64,000 bases of DNA, taken from assembly GCF_033026475.1 (NCBI RefSeq), contig NC_090205.1, positions 5,973,544 to 6,037,543 on the forward strand, read 5' to 3'. The DNA is from Channa argus. Lineage: Eukaryota. The position numbers and the translations under genes were made by a program. This document shows, piece by piece, positions 5,601 to 38,996 of this stretch. Within the stretch, counting starts at the first letter, position 1; each line of letters opens with the position of its first letter. Under the pieces are notes generated by a model, which was not told the origin of the DNA, ran no database searches, and was given only the letters and a program-made list of their open reading frames with translations.

Positions 5601-7599
5601 GCTAATACCCCCCCACCCCCCCCCCCCCTCTGCTCTGGTACAGCTTTACTATGCTCATTACGTTCCGCCACGCTCGGCACAGCCCTTCAGGTAGTTGTAC
5701 TGATCTGAAAGAATTCACCAATCCAGCAGAAATTATTACTTTCCTCTCATTGGTTATTAGGCTTTTACTAATATTAAATCTAAAATCTAAAATCTAGACC
5801 AATGATATGCAGGAATAATAAGTTGCAGTAAATCTGTATATGTGTTTAATAAACAAATTATATTAAAGTACTAGGACTCTACTTCCCGAAATAAAAAAAA
5901 TACCTTAAATAAATTTAATCATAAAATATTTTACAAATAAATCCAATTTTGAAAAATATCAATAAAAAGAAAAATACTAGTCAAATATATAGAATCCACC
6001 AAACCAACAATCCTCCAGTGAAAACACACTGTGTAGTGGGGAAGAAAAAAATCCAATATTTCTCTCTGAAATTTGCATTTAATTATATAAAGTAAGGATG
6101 AATCTGGTCAAACTTGAGAATTGTTCAGAATAACAGAAGCAGCTTGTTGATCTCTTTCATGTTGTTCCATGTTAACCATACCATTATTGACAGTTCATAA
6201 ATTAATGGGACGACCTTAACAACATTTATAAGGTGAATTGGTTTCACATCCACAGGCTAAGAAAACAATATCAGGCTCTGTTTATTATATCAGGAGCCAT
6301 TAATTTTCTGCCAGCTTTATATTGAATATGTTATCAGAAGCCTGGCAAGCAAATGGGAGCAAAGACAAAATGAGCCAATTTAATACTGTTTGGCAGGAGG
6401 AGTTAAATTTCACTCTTATCTGCTCACTGTGATTTTGTCTGACTGGGAATCTCTAAAATAAATTTGTTCGACCTCATTCTCCTGAGGTGTTTGCACCTGT
6501 TCCTGACTTTTATCTACAGTGCTTCCATTAGTGCCCCATGATCCAGAACTGCAATGGGTGTTGGATAATTTTCCTTTCTGTTTCAGACAAAGAAGTTCAT
6601 TGTGTGTGAGCGTCTTCTGTTTCCAATTCAAACACTTCTCAGTTATAAACAACGCGTCCCTTTCATTTCATCCTCAGCTGAAGGTCGAGGAACAAATAGT
6701 TTAAGTTGTCCGCAACATGCTGCTCTTTGTTAACTTTTTCCCTTTTATGTGTGCTAAGCTCAGACGCTTTACTTTTAAAGCTAAGTGTTTCAGGGATTAG
6801 CTGTGACTCAAACCGTGTGGGCAGTTTCTTGGACTTTCTTTTCTTAGTTGAATGCTAATTATTGAATTATGCTATTTATTTCGGCTTCCTACATATCCGA
6901 ATGGGGTTGTACACCAAGATAACTGCAGCTACTGTACAACTCAGCAAATGCCAGCAATTAGAAATAGAAAGAAGCACAACGGGCCTTATGAATATTTCTT
7001 GAATTATTAATCACATGTAAAACTCTTATTCAAATACGTTGAATGGAGTAGAGCTGCTGATAACCAGGGCTGTGTTTCAACACCTAATGCAGCAGAATAA
7101 GAATAAGAATCTTTAGTGTGACGCAGAAAAGTGGAAATCCTTTTCTTTTTTTAATTAATTTTGATCTGTGGTTCACTTTGTCTTATTTTGTCTCTGTTTT
7201 TTTGTTGTTGTAGTGTTTTTATTTGTTTTGTGTGTTTATCTGCAGTAATTTCAGTTTACTAATTACAGTGTTTTTTGGTAAACATGTGGGTTTTTGGAGG
7301 CGTGTTTTTTCTTATTTTTCCTTTAATTTTAAAGCATGTTTGCTGATTTTCTCTGCATGATGAAGGACACAAAAACTCAATACATTTCTCCTTCCTTTTC
7401 TGTCGATTATGCCTGCTTCATGTTTGGGGGGGACATTAACTTATTAATGGTAACAGACACAAATGATGGGTTGAAGGTCTGATGCTTTTTGCAGTTTTGT
7501 GGGTGGGCAACGGCAAATTCTCCATCAGGAAGCCAAAGCGTAAAATGACTGCACACCAGTTCACCGCTAGCACTGCATATGTCAAATACGTCTTTTAAA

Positions 7600-7770: not shown

Positions 7771-10700
7771 CACTTTCTATCCCTGGTTTCTTGGTCTTTT
7801 GGTTAGTTTTTATCTTTTCTGACAAACTCTTTTTGTATCTGTTCGGTCGCTTTACGTGCGTTTTTGGTGATTGTTTTTCATCTTGATCATTTTGTGCCAA
7901 CAAGAAATTTTAAGACTCGTGTGTTATTAAGGCACCACTGATCTCTTGGGCCTCTACTTAATAGACCCGTTTGAAAGTCCATGGTCCAGTGTTCCTTGCT
8001 GAAATTTTAAAAAGAAACTTTGGTCAAAAATGAATGGAAGCAGATGGCTAACTGATGGCAAACTGTGGAAAACAGTTTAACAGACTGTGGGACAGTGTTA
8101 AAGAAAAAACAGTATAAATGTAGGACAGATGAATTGTATGTTTTACTAAAATGTCCTCCGCATATGAGGAAGACACTGTGAGACAGAGCCACGAGAAAAC
8201 TGTCGATCTGACTTTTGGAAAGTATTTCAAGTTATTCAGTGGCTTAGTTCTGAGAGAAGCAGAAAATGAAGGATGCTATTGAAAGTGAAGCAGTTCCCTT
8301 TTATAATTCCTATTGAGCTCTGTGAAAATTCATTAAAAGACTCACAGCTTCTGCAAAGTCCGGACATATGAACAATGCAGCAGACCCGACTTTGACAAAT
8401 GAAGATCAAACTGTTTTATACACACAAAGTCAAACACTTCTTTCTGATTCTAGGCCGTCAGGTTTCAGCTGTCGTTACATATGCGGCGAATTTGTAGCGA
8501 TTAGTTCACATTATCTATAGCTTGACTGCTAAAAGGGTCGGCTCTCCTTCAGAAGTTGAAAAAAAAGAAATGGATGTCAACAAGAATATTAAACTGAGCA
8601 TGCAGCACTTGTTTCCAGCTGCCACAATGACCTCTTACTTCAATACATAAAAAAGGTTTCTATGCGCACAGCCTCTTCTGTCGCCTTCTCTCTGCAGCAG
8701 AGACAGCACAAACATATGAATGCTGACTTATATAATTATCGTTCTGTGCAAGGCAATGTGCTGCAGGAATGCGGAAAGGAAACCTAAAAGATGGAGTCGA
8801 TGTCTGTATGGATCTGCGAGGAGGCTGCAAATATCCATGGACAAATTGCCCATGGATATTTGCAGCATGTGTTTCTGCTACATGGGCTGCAGGAAAACAG
8901 TAGCTGATGAACACACGCTGATAAGATGAATCATAATGACTTTTGGTAATACCCTGACTTTTTATCCATTGCCACTATGGGGTTGATGAAGTTTAAGTGA
9001 AATGTCTCAACCTCTGTTTAATGATTTGCCTGTGTAGGCACATTCCGTGCAGCACCACTGATGGTTCAGACAAACCTCTTTTGTTATGATTAAGGTGCAG
9101 CAGCAATCAGGGCATTTCTTCCAGTATGTACATCTCTGCTCAAGGTCTTGTGATTGCTGCTGCCAACATTTGCCTTACTACCGATGCAAGATGGCGAACA
9201 TGGTGTTAGCATCATCAGAGGGACCATTGAGCTCAATGTGCCTCACTGCAGTCTCATGGAGCCACTAGCATTTCTGCCGCGTTACAACAAAATGCATGTC
9301 TTTGGACTGTGGGAGGAAACTCACACAAGCATGGGAAGAACATGCAAACTCCACACAGCCCGGGACACGATCACTGGAGTTCAGTGTCTTGTCTGAGGTG
9401 AGAGAAAGACATTTCTGACTTCCCTAAATATACCTAGGGACATGTCTGTACAGGACACATAGCCAGGAGAGACTGGGCGCTGCAGTTGGTAAAGGCCACT
9501 GTCTTACCAACCGGGCTTCAGCCGTCCCATAGGGAAATGTCCATACTAATATTTTGGGAAATCTTTCTAATATTTGAGCAAGGTCCTTCGCATAATCTTT
9601 GGTGTGAATATGTCCAATCTAAGGAGTGATAGGACAGAGCGCCTCCCCAGGACACACCTTTAACACATATTAACAGCAAATTCACTTTGTTGGATAGTAA
9701 ACTGAAAAGAAGCCTAATCAGACGAGCTGGTCTTGTGTTGCTGCCTCAGTCGTGGCGTCTGTTACTACAAAAGTTCAACAGTTTACACTGGGTTTAAAAT
9801 ACCAGGTAATTATTAACAACACCAAATTATAAAAAAAATGTAAAAATTAACTTTTAAATAGGAAGGAATAATTAGAAAATGTAGAGGAATAGATGTTTGA
9901 GGATTCTGGGTAAACTGCACTCGACACAAGCACAGTGAATGCAGGTGTAGTTAATGTGGTTAATTCGGCCTGTGCTGGGAAATAACAGTAGAAAGTTAGA
10001 AAGCTGCTGTTTAAAGCCCGGGACATGAAGGGAGAACAGGGACAGGATTATGGTAGAGGGGGACTGGAGGAAAGCAAACACGGTCTGACTTCAAGTAACT
10101 CTCGTCAACGGATGCTACAGTTCTGATAGCATAACCCTGTAAATGTGTTTGAATAGGCCGTTATTTAGCTAGGCGAGTGTGTGCTTTGGGGTTGTGGAGT
10201 AACTTTGTGTACTTTAGCAGTTATGGTGGTCTGAATGCCAATTAGCCACGTGCTGGGTTTTTAATGGTAATTAGCCATGTGGAGCTGGGGCGGCACAGGT
10301 TCCTCTTCCCTGTTTAAATGAGTGAAGAGAAAATGACATTAGAGTATTTTCTGGTAACTGCAGGGCTAAATTGTTTAATGTGTGTTTAGAAACACATTCA
10401 TATGTTTGTAACAATAAAATCAAAAATCTACTATATGATGATCCAGTTAGTGAAATAAAAAAAATAAAAATGTTTTCATTTTTAGCTTAATAAGCTTAAA
10501 GCTACAAGCTGCTCTGCTATGCTCCACACAGCCCTTCAGGTTTTAGATGGTATCAGATTGCAATGAATAGTCCCGTAGGAATGAGGATGTTTTTTTGCTG
10601 TTGTTGTTGTTGTTGTTGGCCAACCTGGAAGCATCTTCATTGTTTCATTGACAAAAAGCCGATGGAATTTTTCATTGACATTTGGATTTTTGTGGAAAAA

Positions 10701-16854: not shown

Positions 16855-16919
<65 letters not shown>

Positions 16920-16922
16920 TTT
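16855..16922. repeat. Compound microsatellite (CT)12 (TA)15 T16.
   Basis: Read directly from the sequence. Confidence 0.95.
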
Positions 16923-18599
16923 TGCAGAAATATGAATGCAGAAATAATTCCAGCTCACACAAGAATAGATTGCCTTAATTTATTAATAGTTGTACATGAT
17001 TACAAAGATGATGTGAAACGCCTGATTACAGATCTGTGTTAATGTGTTCTTCGCTCACAGGTTTGTAATCATGGAACTATTAATGTAGGAAGATGATCCA
17101 GACATCCCTGCTGCATCTACACACACTGCTAACCAGCTCTCAGCTTGTAGCTGTTGATGTTTAATAATAAATACCAGCGATTCATCTTCAGCACCAGATA
17201 ATCAAGCTTGTACCAAACAGGAATGGCTGCAAATCAGTAACATTGCTTAGAATCATGCCAACGTTGGGATCATTTTATAGTCCCATACAGATGATTTTCT
17301 GCTCTTTGTTAATCATGAGCTGAACAGTTACAAGGACGTAGACTTGAGCAATCGAGCATTATCAACATAAGTAGCAGGATTTATGCAGAGTGCAGAGCTG
17401 TTCTAAGTATTTTTGGAGGAAATTTATCCTAAAGATAAGACTGGGGATATTCTATGTTGTTCCTGCCTTGGATCTGATCTCACAAAGTGACCATAGGCAA
17501 CAAGGAATTGATCCAGAAACTATTAAAAAGGCATCAGTGAGCCAGAGCCATACACTGGGTGACACGTACCTCCATTACCAAGAGCATGAGCACTCCTTTG
17601 AGTCAATTCTAAATACACTGTCCCAGTGCTACAGACGGTAAATAGTGGGGGGGCTGAGCTGTGAGTATACTGGCATGAATAAAATGGGAGTGTGCAAGTA
17701 CTGATGTGCATGGATGGTGTAAAGAGAAGCTGTGCAGAGGAGCTCTTCGTGTCCATTTCCTTTCTGTGGCCTGGGGAGAGAAGCTGTGGAGGTGTTGAGT
17801 GGTCTTGGCTTCGAGGGCTCTCAGATCCGAGTTTTGTGAAGTGTTTCATCATAATCTGCTTTCACATCAGCTGTTTTGTCATCAATAGTTTATTTGCTGG
17901 AAACACTCCAATGTCACAGTGCTGTTTACAGTATGTACTGTAGTAGTGCATCTGTCTGTTCCCTGTCATCTCCCCTTCAGAGTAAAAAAAGTACGTCTGG
18001 CTCAATACCACCTGCTGTTATGGTGCATGGACGTGGGGACACAAATATAACAAGCTTTTATCTGTTGGTCACGAAACGACTTGTTACGTGTCCAATGTGT
18101 TTCGACCTGTAGCCTTCATCAGGGTCTGTTGAAAGCACAGAGGACAAAGACATTTAAATAGAATTGTGTGTAAAATTAAAAAATAAAATAAAACAACCAA
18201 TCATATACAAACTTAAATATGATAGCCAGTGAGAAACATATACATTGACATGTCATTGACACATTAACCTCGGATATATTTCATGTGTAAATATCCAGTC
18301 TTTTCTCTGCCACACGTCCCTACACCTTTTTCCACTTCGCTAATTATGAGTGATTACTTTTACTAGTATCATAGTTCATTCTTACCCAGCTTTCATCCCT
18401 TGCCATTGTCTTGAGCCTCTCAGCTTATCTCTGCCTGATCAGTAATTGCCTGGACTCTGTTTAAGCCAGTTTGCTCTTTTTCTGATTAAAAGAATATGTA
18501 CTCAGTGTAAAGTCTACACTGAAATGTCAGCCCCTACTCACATGGTTAATCCCACAGTTTAAGCAATACACCTATGATATTAGAGAAAACAGAGCAAAT

Positions 18600-30130: not shown

Positions 30131-30189
<59 letters not shown>

Positions 30190-33539: not shown

Positions 33540-33610
33540 ATCACACAGAAGCTTTCCTAACAGCACAGCCGCTTGTTGAAGCTCGTCAGGCAGCAGAGCG
33601 ATTCGTGAAG
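33540..33610 (+). CDS. parp4: parp4 exon 23 (vWA): (G)DHTEAFLTAQPLVEARQAAERFVK.
   Basis: Acceptor tgtcag|at, donor gtgaag|gtgagt. The phase is continuous with exon 22. Confidence 0.7.
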
Positions 33611-33889
33611 GTGAGTTGTGAAACTATAGCTATAAGGATTAATAAACAATGATGCTCCAAAGCTCTGGCATTAAACAAGTATATATTGTTTTATAAACTT
33701 TATTTTTGAATATGGTTATTTCCAGTGATTAATGTCATTACCTACTAATGTACTATTATAACATACTAAATATGAAACTGCACAGCATCTTAAACTTCTT
33801 ACCCTGTTCTGACTTTGGATAATGCATTATCTAAGATTCCCTACTTTATTTTTTTTTTTGGTTTTGCCTTCAACCTACACACACAATAA

Positions 33890-33941
33890 ATAGGTGTGTG
33901 TGTTTATATATATATCTATATATATCTATATATAGATATAT

Positions 33942-33976
<35 letters not shown>

Positions 33977-33995
33977 TAGATATAGATATATTTAT
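33890..33995. repeat. (TATA)/(GATA)n compound microsatellite.
   Basis: Read directly from the sequence (tatatatatctatatatatctatatatagatatatatagatagatagatagatag...). Confidence 0.95.
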
Positions 33996-34249
33996 AGAGA
34001 GAGAGAGAATTTTAGGGTACCTGTTCTCATTTTGTTGAAGGTCGTTCAAGGACCTTCAACAAAATGAGAACAGGTACCCTAAAATACCCTAAATTCCAAC
34101 TTTGCGAGTGTGCAAAGATCGTGAGCTCTTGGTGATAGTGACACCAGATTAACCAACTAGTTCACTGACAAGTGAAGTGGTTTAAACCAAATGATCTAAA
34201 TGCAACATATAACATTCTGCTCTTAAAACTCTCCTCTCCTTGTTGTCAG

Positions 34250-34437
34250 CTCCTCTCTCCAGTAGGAGGCAGCACTGAGCTGTGGCGACCCCTGCGGGCT
34301 CTCAGCCTGTTGCCTCCGACAAACGGCATTAGGAACCTGGTGCTGCTGTCTGACGGCCACATCCAGAACCCAGACCTCACCCTGCAGCTGCTCAGAGACA
34401 ATGCTCAGCATAGCCGCCTCTTCACCTGTGGACTCAG
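34250..34437 (+). CDS. parp4: parp4 exon 24 (vWA): LLSPVGGSTELWRPLRALSLLPPTNGIRNLVLLSDGHIQNPDLTLQLLRDNAQHSRLFTCGL.
   Basis: Acceptor gttgtcag|ctc, donor actcag|gtctgt. It is in frame with ORF 34172..34666 and matches human TPTMGNTDFWKTLRYLSLLYPARGSRNILLVSDGHLQDESLTLQLVKRSRPHTRLFACGI. Confidence 0.9.
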
Positions 34438-37424: not shown

Positions 37425-38524
37425 GACTTGTTTGAGACATTTGACGAACTCCCTGAAGGCCGATACCAGTCAAACCTTTTAGACGAGCTAGAAGATGAAG
37501 ATGAAGTATATGTTGATAAAGATAATGATGATGAATGGTCCGAGGAAAAGAGATTCTCTGAAGCAGTGGAAAACAGCTCGGATGAGGCCACAATTTCTCC
37601 ACAGTCCTTGCACCACATGGATGTTCTCTGTGTTCCTCCTCCCCCTCGCAGTTTTATTCCTACCACTTTTATACCATGTCTACCTCAATCTTCTGCAGTT
37701 GGTGGTTCAGTTAATCGTGTTTATTGTAGTCTGTCTCCAGCTCCTCCTGATTCAACCCCTCTTTCTCCTCCTTCTGTTTCCCATCTTTGTGGCCAATTTT
37801 CTCCTCATGCTTCTGTGGCTGCTCTACATTCTGCTGATTTTAGCCGTGCTCCTTCTTCTCCTGCCCAAAGTTTTGCTCTTTTTGGTTCAGCTGCTCCTGT
37901 TCTATGTGGTCTACCTCCTGCTCCTATTGTCTCAGCCGCTCCTTGTCCTCCTTCTGGCAGATTTGCTTTTAGCCAAATTTCTTCTCATGATTCTGTGCAT
38001 CCTCTGCGTTCTGCTTTTAGACCTCCTTTTCCTGCCCAAGGTTCTCCTTTTATTGGTTCAGCTGCTCCTGCTTCTTCTGCCCCACCTGCAGCTCCTCTTA
38101 TCGTAGCCCCTTCTTTCCCTTCTGTCCAATTTTCTGCTGATAGTAGCTTATCTCCACCTGTTCCATGTGCTTTATCTTCTGATGCTCTTCCCCCTCCTCC
38201 TTCTGCCCAAAGTTCTGTTGTTTTTGGTTCAGCTCCTACTCCAGTATACGCACGTCGCTTAAAACGCTCTTCACTTCAAGCCTGTGAGTCATTGGAGATA
38301 CCGGGGATTGCAGACAAGATCAACCTAGAAGATGATTTGCAAAGATCAGAAAAAAATCGTGTGGCAGAAGCTCAAGAAGAAACCACTAGATTTACTAGAT
38401 CTGCAAGAAGACTAAATTTACGGGAGAAATCATATGCTGCACCGCTTCGAGCTCGACTCGCTAAAAAGCCGTTTAGAGCTCATGATGAACATGCATCTCA
38501 AACTGATATAAAGGAGCCGCGCAG
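37425..38524 (+). CDS. parp4: parp4 exon 30: a 1.1-kb Ser/Pro/Ala-rich low-complexity exon (DLFETFDELPEGRYQSNLLDELEDEDE...PPPPRSF...FGSAAP repeats...DIKEPR). It corresponds to the disordered C-terminal region of PARP4.
   Basis: It lies inside the 366-codon ORF 37428..38528. The acceptor is ctcatag|gac and the donor is gcgcag|gtgagt (phase 2). Human PARP4 has an equivalent large P/S-rich exon. The internal sequence is repetitive (S..A..FGSAAP...P). Confidence 0.7.
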
Positions 38525-38996
38525 GTGAGTCCCCCCTCAAAAAACATTGTTTTGAATGTTCCGTGTGCAGTATTTACAGCATGCATGTTTGAAAGGAGGA
38601 TAAATTCAGTGCGGTGCCTCACTTTATTTTGAAAGGGCATATGCTGTTTGTCAGCATATTTAATGCACATTTGATGCACATCATCAGAAATTAATTAAAG
38701 TTAATGCTAATTAATTTATCAGGGGGATGCAAATGTTTGTACTTTTGTAATTATCATTATTTTACTACTTTTTACTTTTTTAATACTCCTGGATCTTTTT
38801 TTTCTTTTTTTTTATCTAATGATGAAGGAACATTTGTATTAGCTGATGGTGCATTGCCACTTCAAAATAATGGGTTGTAAGCTTTTTTATCCAACTGTAA
38901 GTCTGTAAGTCTAAGTCTTTTGTTCCTGGATATGCAGATGTTATAAGTCTCACTCTATTGTCTATATTCATTGAGTGTCCTGCTGTGATTGTGTAG

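Follow-up and report, generated by a model that had tools for sequence, protein, structure and literature searches.

An intron of the PARP4 gene of Channa argus contains a 77-bp palindrome that consists of two perfect 35-bp arms, separated by a 7-nt spacer and directly abutting a compound microsatellite. This palindrome is real and lies far beyond chance expectation. The explanation we prefer, with about an even chance of being right, is that a one-step template-switch mutation (TSM) duplicated approximately 35-37 bp of intron sequence in inverted orientation, recently, in one lineage and at this single locus. Positions are given throughout in the window, by which we mean the whole 64-kb stretch of DNA that was analysed.

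Structure and setting of the palindrome

The plus strand of the window carries the VIT/VWA part of the teleost PARP4 gene. Concatenated exon translations match percomorph PARP4, with best identities of 75-87 % in a protein collection that does not include the source species. An earlier note on this DNA had placed the hairpin in a PARP4 intron, and the splice junctions (AAG/GTGAGT at 33610/33611 and TGTCAG/CTC at 34249/34250) confirm this location, as do the flanking exons, both of the VWA region. The upstream exon ends with ...AERFVK. The elements of the locus are as follows.

33540-33610, plus strand: upstream PARP4 exon, encoding DHTEAFLTAQPLVEARQAAERFVK, VWA region
33611-34249, plus strand: host PARP4 intron, 639 nt, phase 0, GT...AG
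~33895-34008: compound microsatellite, (TG)n-(TA)n/(TATC)-(GATA)8-(GATATA)-(GA)6
34009-34043: left arm, ATTTTAGGGTACCTGTTCTCATTTTGTTGAAGGTC, complementary to the right arm at 35/35 positions
34044-34050: spacer or hairpin loop, GTTCAAG, 7 nt, asymmetric
34051-34085: right arm, GACCTTCAACAAAATGAGAACAGGTACCCTAAAAT, exact reverse complement of the left arm
34085-34093: extra direct copy of TACCCTAAA, whose source copy lies at 34075-34083 in the right arm, one A between them
34250-34437, plus strand: downstream PARP4 exon, encoding LLSPVGGSTELW...RLFTCGL, VWA region

The whole palindrome thus spans 34009-34085 and is centred on 34047. Its distance is 399 nt to the 5' splice site and 164 nt to the 3' splice site, beyond the region in which branch points usually lie. 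Further downstream in PARP4, an exon-like ORF (37428-38528) encodes 366 aa, rich in Ser, Pro and Ala and with an acidic N-terminus. No homologue of this ORF was found in the 5.8-billion-protein collection, despite 8000 candidates sharing short words with it; it presumably represents a fast-evolving, low-complexity part of PARP4.

The hairpin had originally been described as a perfect 34-bp stem with a 7-nt loop. Its perfection and its loop hold, while the stem proved to be one pair longer. With the base composition of the window and loops of 0-12 nt, perfect stems of at least 35 bp are expected 4e-15 times per 64-kb window and 4e-11 times per 0.7-Gb genome, and the longest stems in 40 Markov-1 random windows measured 9-13 bp; the palindrome is therefore well beyond what chance produces. 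Folding, which had been proposed as a check, yields a strong hairpin: the free energy of the 111-nt region is -62 kcal/mol for RNA folding (z = -12.6) and -40.1 kcal/mol for DNA folding (z = -14.0), and in both cases 0/200 shuffles were as good.

The microsatellite ends at about 34008 and the left arm starts at 34009. TRF reports the tract in two rows (33905-33996 and 33938-34006), and (AG)6 occupies 33996-34007. Adjacency to a (GATA)n tract at 33890-33995 had been noticed before; the adjacency stands, whereas the tract is not pure GATA, being composed of TG, TA, GATA and GA units. Since the 64-kb window holds only 13 microsatellite tracts, together 590 nt, their abutment by chance would be of the order of 1e-3. 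Tracts of this kind are established replication impediments.

Other PARP4 introns contain long (TA)n tracts, (TA)20 at 30131-30171 and another at 16877-16928. Being self-complementary, such tracts account for most of the other "perfect hairpins" of the window. A second perfect hairpin that is not of microsatellite origin occurs at 8824-8866 in apparently non-coding sequence. It has a 17-bp stem (GCTGCAAATATCCATGG / CCATGGATATTTGCAGC) and a 9-nt loop (ACAAATTGC), and stems of this kind are expected 1.1e-4 times per window. As RNA, 8800-8890 folds at -37 kcal/mol (z = -3.6), with no Rfam match at the gathering score. This hairpin might have arisen by another template switch, or it might be small and functional.

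All three TTAGGG/CCCTAA words at the locus derive from one 9-mer, present as TTTAGGGTA in the left arm, as TACCCTAAA in the right arm and once more as the added direct copy. That three telomere-like words occur here follows from the palindrome and the local 9-nt direct copy, which repeat the same 9-mer. The words reported by the earlier note are thus present, and the meaning suggested by them is not borne out: the window contains 9 TTAGGG (14.9 expected) and 9 CCCTAA (11.9 expected), and no tandem dimer of either word in its 64 kb. An interstitial telomeric sequence was rejected on these grounds, there being no tandem array and single hexamers at or below expectation.

The two direct 9-mers do not form a clean tandem duplication, as the period is 10 and just 19 bases are periodic. 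Deletion of the 9 nt (or an equivalent rotation) gives a perfect 37-bp palindrome, in which 34007-34043 pair with 34051-34084 plus 34094-34096. Among 684 single-deletion variants, seven lengthen the arms, and five of these seven are the 9-nt deletion. Because its removal restores the 37-bp palindrome, the extra 9-mer looks like a small templated insertion into the palindrome or made together with it. The two pairs gained on deletion could be of chance origin (1/16).

Copies of the arms and orthologous introns

We wondered if sequences related to the arms occur elsewhere. A 28-mer of the arm, scanned across the 64-kb window with up to 3 mismatches, retrieved the two arms only, and blastn-short (word size 7) against the window and approximately 59 kb of PARP4 loci from other fish gave matches of at most 11 nt. 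MITE-like inverted repeats are scarce across the window overall. Exact scanning for arm 22-mers yielded no match in viral contigs, JGI metagenome contigs and 185,579 prokaryote genomes. A gapped 12+12 palindromic pattern matched twice in metagenome contigs, both times in unrelated prokaryotic terminator-like hairpins (L006, L007). Full-text search of the literature with six arm substrings returned 0 papers. Since the protein collection holds arbitrary ORFs from fish contigs (P0020, for example), every open frame of the arms was translated and the resulting peptides were searched against it; none of its 5.8 billion proteins shared three 5-residue words with them. These negative searches, which apart from the 64-kb window concern sequences beyond the source genome, argue against a widespread, conserved family and leave room for one confined to the source species.

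Within the window, a 14-mer of the upstream exon (33573-33586, TTGTTGAAGCTCGT) is identical at 13/14 positions with the junction of left arm and loop (34032-34045, TTGTTGAAGGTCGT). With a blastn-short E value of 1.6 in the window, this match is most likely due to chance.

The same intron, delimited by both flanking exons, was taken from six other teleosts: an ENA contig (L001), Dissostichus mawsoni (L005), Austrofundulus limnaeus (L008), Plectropomus leopardus (L009), a Logan contig (L010) and Goodea atripinnis (L011). Nucleotide identity of the exons is 75-89 %. The introns range from 217 nt (Austrofundulus limnaeus) to 1436 nt (ENA contig) and cannot be aligned to the window, except for about 50 nt at the 3' end in the ENA contig; in comparison with three orthologues, the 3' half of the intron displays no similarity upstream of ~34199. 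In none of the six orthologous introns does a complex perfect stem exceed 10 bp, none contains a GATA/GA microsatellite, and none contains arm-like sequence, since local scores of 9-12 stay below the 95th percentile (13) of a random null whose median is 10. Comparison of orthologous introns had been proposed together with the original observation and, carried out here on distant teleosts, it found the hairpin absent from all six. Since both features are missing from these introns, palindrome and microsatellite are specific to the lineage of the window relative to the six teleosts compared.

The Goodea atripinnis locus carries a (GT)n tract (7445-7478). Contigs L001 (ENA ERZ13706729 NODE_57318, 3786 bp), L002-L004 and L010 (Logan) contain PARP4 VWA exons at 75-88 % identity with the window. 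Although filed as metagenome or run assemblies, they represent fish nuclear host DNA, and the "proteins" deposited from them, such as P0020, are partly intron read-through.

The 70 arm sites without a single difference set an upper limit to the age of the palindrome. If neutral rates of 1e-8 to 3e-9 per site per year are assumed, formation or last homogenisation took place no more than ~4-14 Myr ago (95 % bound).

Possible origins of the palindrome

In TSMs, the nascent strand briefly copies the complementary strand or itself and then returns (PMC10710096). Documented events comprise 28-83 nt and need no pre-existing similarity (PMC10710096; bioRxiv 10.1101/2021.04.15.439925). More than 6,000 primate hairpins stem from TSMs, and TSM-derived miRNA genes are enriched in introns (PMC10710096; bioRxiv 10.1101/2021.04.15.439925). 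Arms that are identical at 35/35 positions and lie 7 nt apart are the product expected from a single short template switch. At the PARP4 locus, the nascent strand would have stalled at the structure-prone compound microsatellite and left its template, folded back or jumped to the opposite strand, copied approximately 35 nt as reverse complement and finally rejoined the original template. In a concrete version, a fork making the bottom strand leftwards would copy 34085 to 34044 and stall at the (GA)n/(GATA)n/(TA)n tract; its 3' end would snap back and copy its own 35-37 nt, giving rise to the left arm, and synthesis would resume at the microsatellite edge. In the mirror version the right arm would be the copy, and break repair with templated synthesis may lead to an identical product. 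The direct copy of 9 nt that adjoins the right arm on its outer side might come from a second slip in the same event or from a later templated insertion. The geometry, the perfect match of the arms, the abutting microsatellite, the lack of a target-site duplication and of further copies in the sequences searched, and the absence from the orthologous introns of distant relatives are direct observations, and from them we infer the template-switch mechanism, the identity of the copied arm and neutrality; the palindrome is probably a neutral, functionless scar of an intronic mutation. Within PARP4 pre-mRNA it can fold into a hairpin, and as DNA it can adopt a cruciform or hairpin structure. Against the template switch, the loop has no microhomology that would obviously prime the snap-back, the simplest four-point model does not account cleanly for the extra 9-mer, and a TA dinucleotide placed symmetrically at 34013/34080 would also suit a Tc1/mariner-type insertion.

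The palindrome resembles TSM hairpins of the Loytynoja & Goldman model (Monttinen, Frilander & Loytynoja 2023, PMC10710096) in that a short reverse-complement copy, tens of bases long, lies few bases from its source, pairs perfectly at birth, is intronic and without target-site duplication (TSD), and may be accompanied by direct repeats. Published TSMs are defined by an inferred ancestor that lacks the inverted copy, whereas the introns available here are too diverged for alignment near the palindrome and show only that it is absent. What sets the PARP4 locus apart is that the palindrome sits tightly against the edge of a microsatellite and has an additional direct copy of 9 nt. Quasi-palindrome correction and snap-back synthesis at short inverted repeats (PMC7999016) likewise generate perfect inverted repeats with short spacer by intrastrand fold-back of a nascent or resected 3' end, which copies its own strand. 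Such systems usually begin with an imperfect palindrome or yield large palindromic duplications, in contrast to the small, contained 77 bp found here. Polymerase-theta-mediated end joining inserts short direct and inverted copies of flanks, with templated inserts typically shorter than 35 nt. The inverted arm as well as the direct copy of 9 nt could be explained in this way.

The alternative with most to be said for it is a palindromic mini-MITE of MADE1 type, that is, two terminal inverted repeats (TIRs) joined by few bases and inserted at TA by a Tc1/mariner-family transposase; we regard it as unlikely. To look for the mark of an insertion, all left boundaries at 34000-34029 were combined with all right boundaries at 34065-34099 and tested for direct flanking repeats of 2-11 nt. 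As the arms carry no substitution, any TSD should still be intact, and no genuine one was found: the scan yielded self-complementary GGTACC/GTAC (34016/34073), TA and short chance matches. The GTAC, GGTACC and TA matches are trivial, because any palindrome gives self-complementary substrings. TSDs typical of piggyBac (TTAA), hAT (8 bp) and Mutator/Merlin (8-10 bp) are absent, as are those of 3 bp, and PIF/Harbinger was rejected on geometry, TTA...TAA being inverted rather than direct. The sole surviving insertion reading is a Tc1/mariner-type element at 34015-34079 with TIR GGGTACCTGTTC... and with TA symmetrically on both sides (34013-34014 and 34080-34081). This layout requires four additional flanking pairs (ATTT/AAAT) to be complementary by chance (1/256, perhaps 1/16 in AT-only flanks), and the inferred terminus GGGTACC... 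is unlike the CAG/YAGG in which Tc1/mariner elements usually end. The mini-MITE also lacks a TSD of any other length and requires a separate event for the 9-mer direct copy, and no related sequence turned up in the window, in loci of other fish, in public DNA collections or among the ORFs of the protein collection. On the other side, teleost genomes are rich in DNA transposons, and for a family of a few thousand copies a single copy in 64 kb tells nothing. Inverted repeats with hardly any internal sequence and a total of 77 bp are as expected of a MITE, for which the size limit is ~600 bp. The arms of MADE1 and of the palindrome are presumably alike in their first five bases (TTAGG) only. The architecture is nevertheless the same as in human MADE1, which has 7,850 annotated copies (PMC1784062) and measures 80 bp (two 37-bp TIRs and 6 bp), as compared with 77 bp (2 x 35 + 7) here, and both elements form stable hairpins when transcribed (MADE1 / hsa-mir-548; Piriyapongsa & Jordan 2007, PMC1784062). 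MADE1 has TA TSDs and a known autonomous parent, Hsmar1, whereas neither a second copy nor an unambiguous TSD or parent was found for the PARP4 palindrome. The suggestion of the earlier note that the arms are a pair of MITE termini thus receives no support from the TSD scan or from copy searches beyond the source genome. A TSM is favoured over a mini-MITE because there is no genuine TSD, the palindrome abuts a microsatellite, a 9-mer is added where the arm ends and the searches turned up no further copy.

Irrespective of which of the two origins applies, the hairpin might be transcribed as part of the PARP4 intron and cut by Drosha/Dicer, thus serving as the precursor of a miRNA or endo-siRNA. 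It lies on the sense strand of a transcribed intron and folds at -62 kcal/mol, its 35-bp stem has the preferred pri-miRNA length (Fang & Bartel, as relayed in PMC10710096), and hairpins born from TSMs as well as from MADE1 have become miRNAs (PMC10710096, PMC1784062). Rfam gave no match at the gathering score across the whole window. The best sub-threshold match of the hairpin, mir-1468, reaches 47 bits of the 95 required and is similar on both strands; since such matches occur on both strands and scatter over unrelated miRNA families from plants and animals, they are of the generic kind that long perfect hairpins attract. Moreover, the 7-nt loop is below the preferred length of at least 10 nt (criteria in PMC10710096), direct reading of the sequence reveals neither basal UG nor apical UGU, the closest downstream CNNC lies out of register at 34097-34100, and six teleosts do not share the hairpin. 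The precursor proposed in the earlier note has no support and is very improbable. An assembly or sequencing artefact, such as a chimeric fold-back read or mis-polishing beside the microsatellite, has very little chance. The adjoining low-complexity tract is of the kind where assemblers and polishers err, and palindromes are named as problem sequences for sequencing in PMC4057610. Against it, the 77-bp unit fits in one short read, and known fold-back artefacts are kilobase-scale and adapter-centred, while spacer and arms are complex and non-adapter here. The slimmest chance of all is that of a transposon excision footprint (hAT-type hairpin intermediate with long P-nucleotides) or an interstitial telomeric remnant. 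The two direct 9-mers one base apart (34075-34093) resemble a TSD-footprint-TSD scar, and TTAGGG/CCCTAA words are present. P-nucleotide palindromes, however, are spacer-free and centred on the broken end; here, the asymmetric 7-nt spacer and the centre at 34047, 37 nt from the 9-mer junction at 34084, do not fit the foldback scar that had been suggested, and the hexamers are at or below chance and never tandem. A LINE/SINE 3' tail (stem-loop and simple repeat, minus strand) was rejected, as nothing upstream is like a retroposon body and the stems of such tails are ~8-10 bp. We therefore return to the template switch: the earlier idea of a recently formed palindrome is the one favoured by perfect arms, TA as the only possible TSD, lack of a second copy in the sequences searched and absence from six teleosts.

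Meaning of the locus

Approximately 180,000 near-perfect palindromes longer than 40 bp, mostly intronic and intergenic, are present in the human genome (PMC7999016), and in view of this number a 77-bp intronic palindrome is unremarkable in itself. One-step template switching and palindromic MITEs are both already well-described sources of palindromes. Among perfect palindromes with short spacer, those of greater length and perfection are more structure-prone. As to annotation, the locus should not be called telomeric, and a miRNA or MITE label should await genome-wide and small-RNA evidence.

It is highly improbable that the palindrome is a newborn intronic hairpin-RNA gene at its zero-mutation stage, born from a TSM or a MITE, co-transcribed with PARP4 and already processed into small RNAs or heavily ADAR-edited. 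If it were, it would offer a natural snapshot of de novo birth of a miRNA or endo-siRNA in a teleost. A perfect 35-bp duplex in pre-mRNA would be a plausible ADAR substrate, and editing of the PARP4 palindrome would have no coding consequence.

A modest value of the locus lies in a clean, unmutated perfect hairpin born beside a microsatellite. Given population or sister-species data, it might reveal which of the two arms was copied from the other and whether fork stalling at microsatellites triggers template switches.
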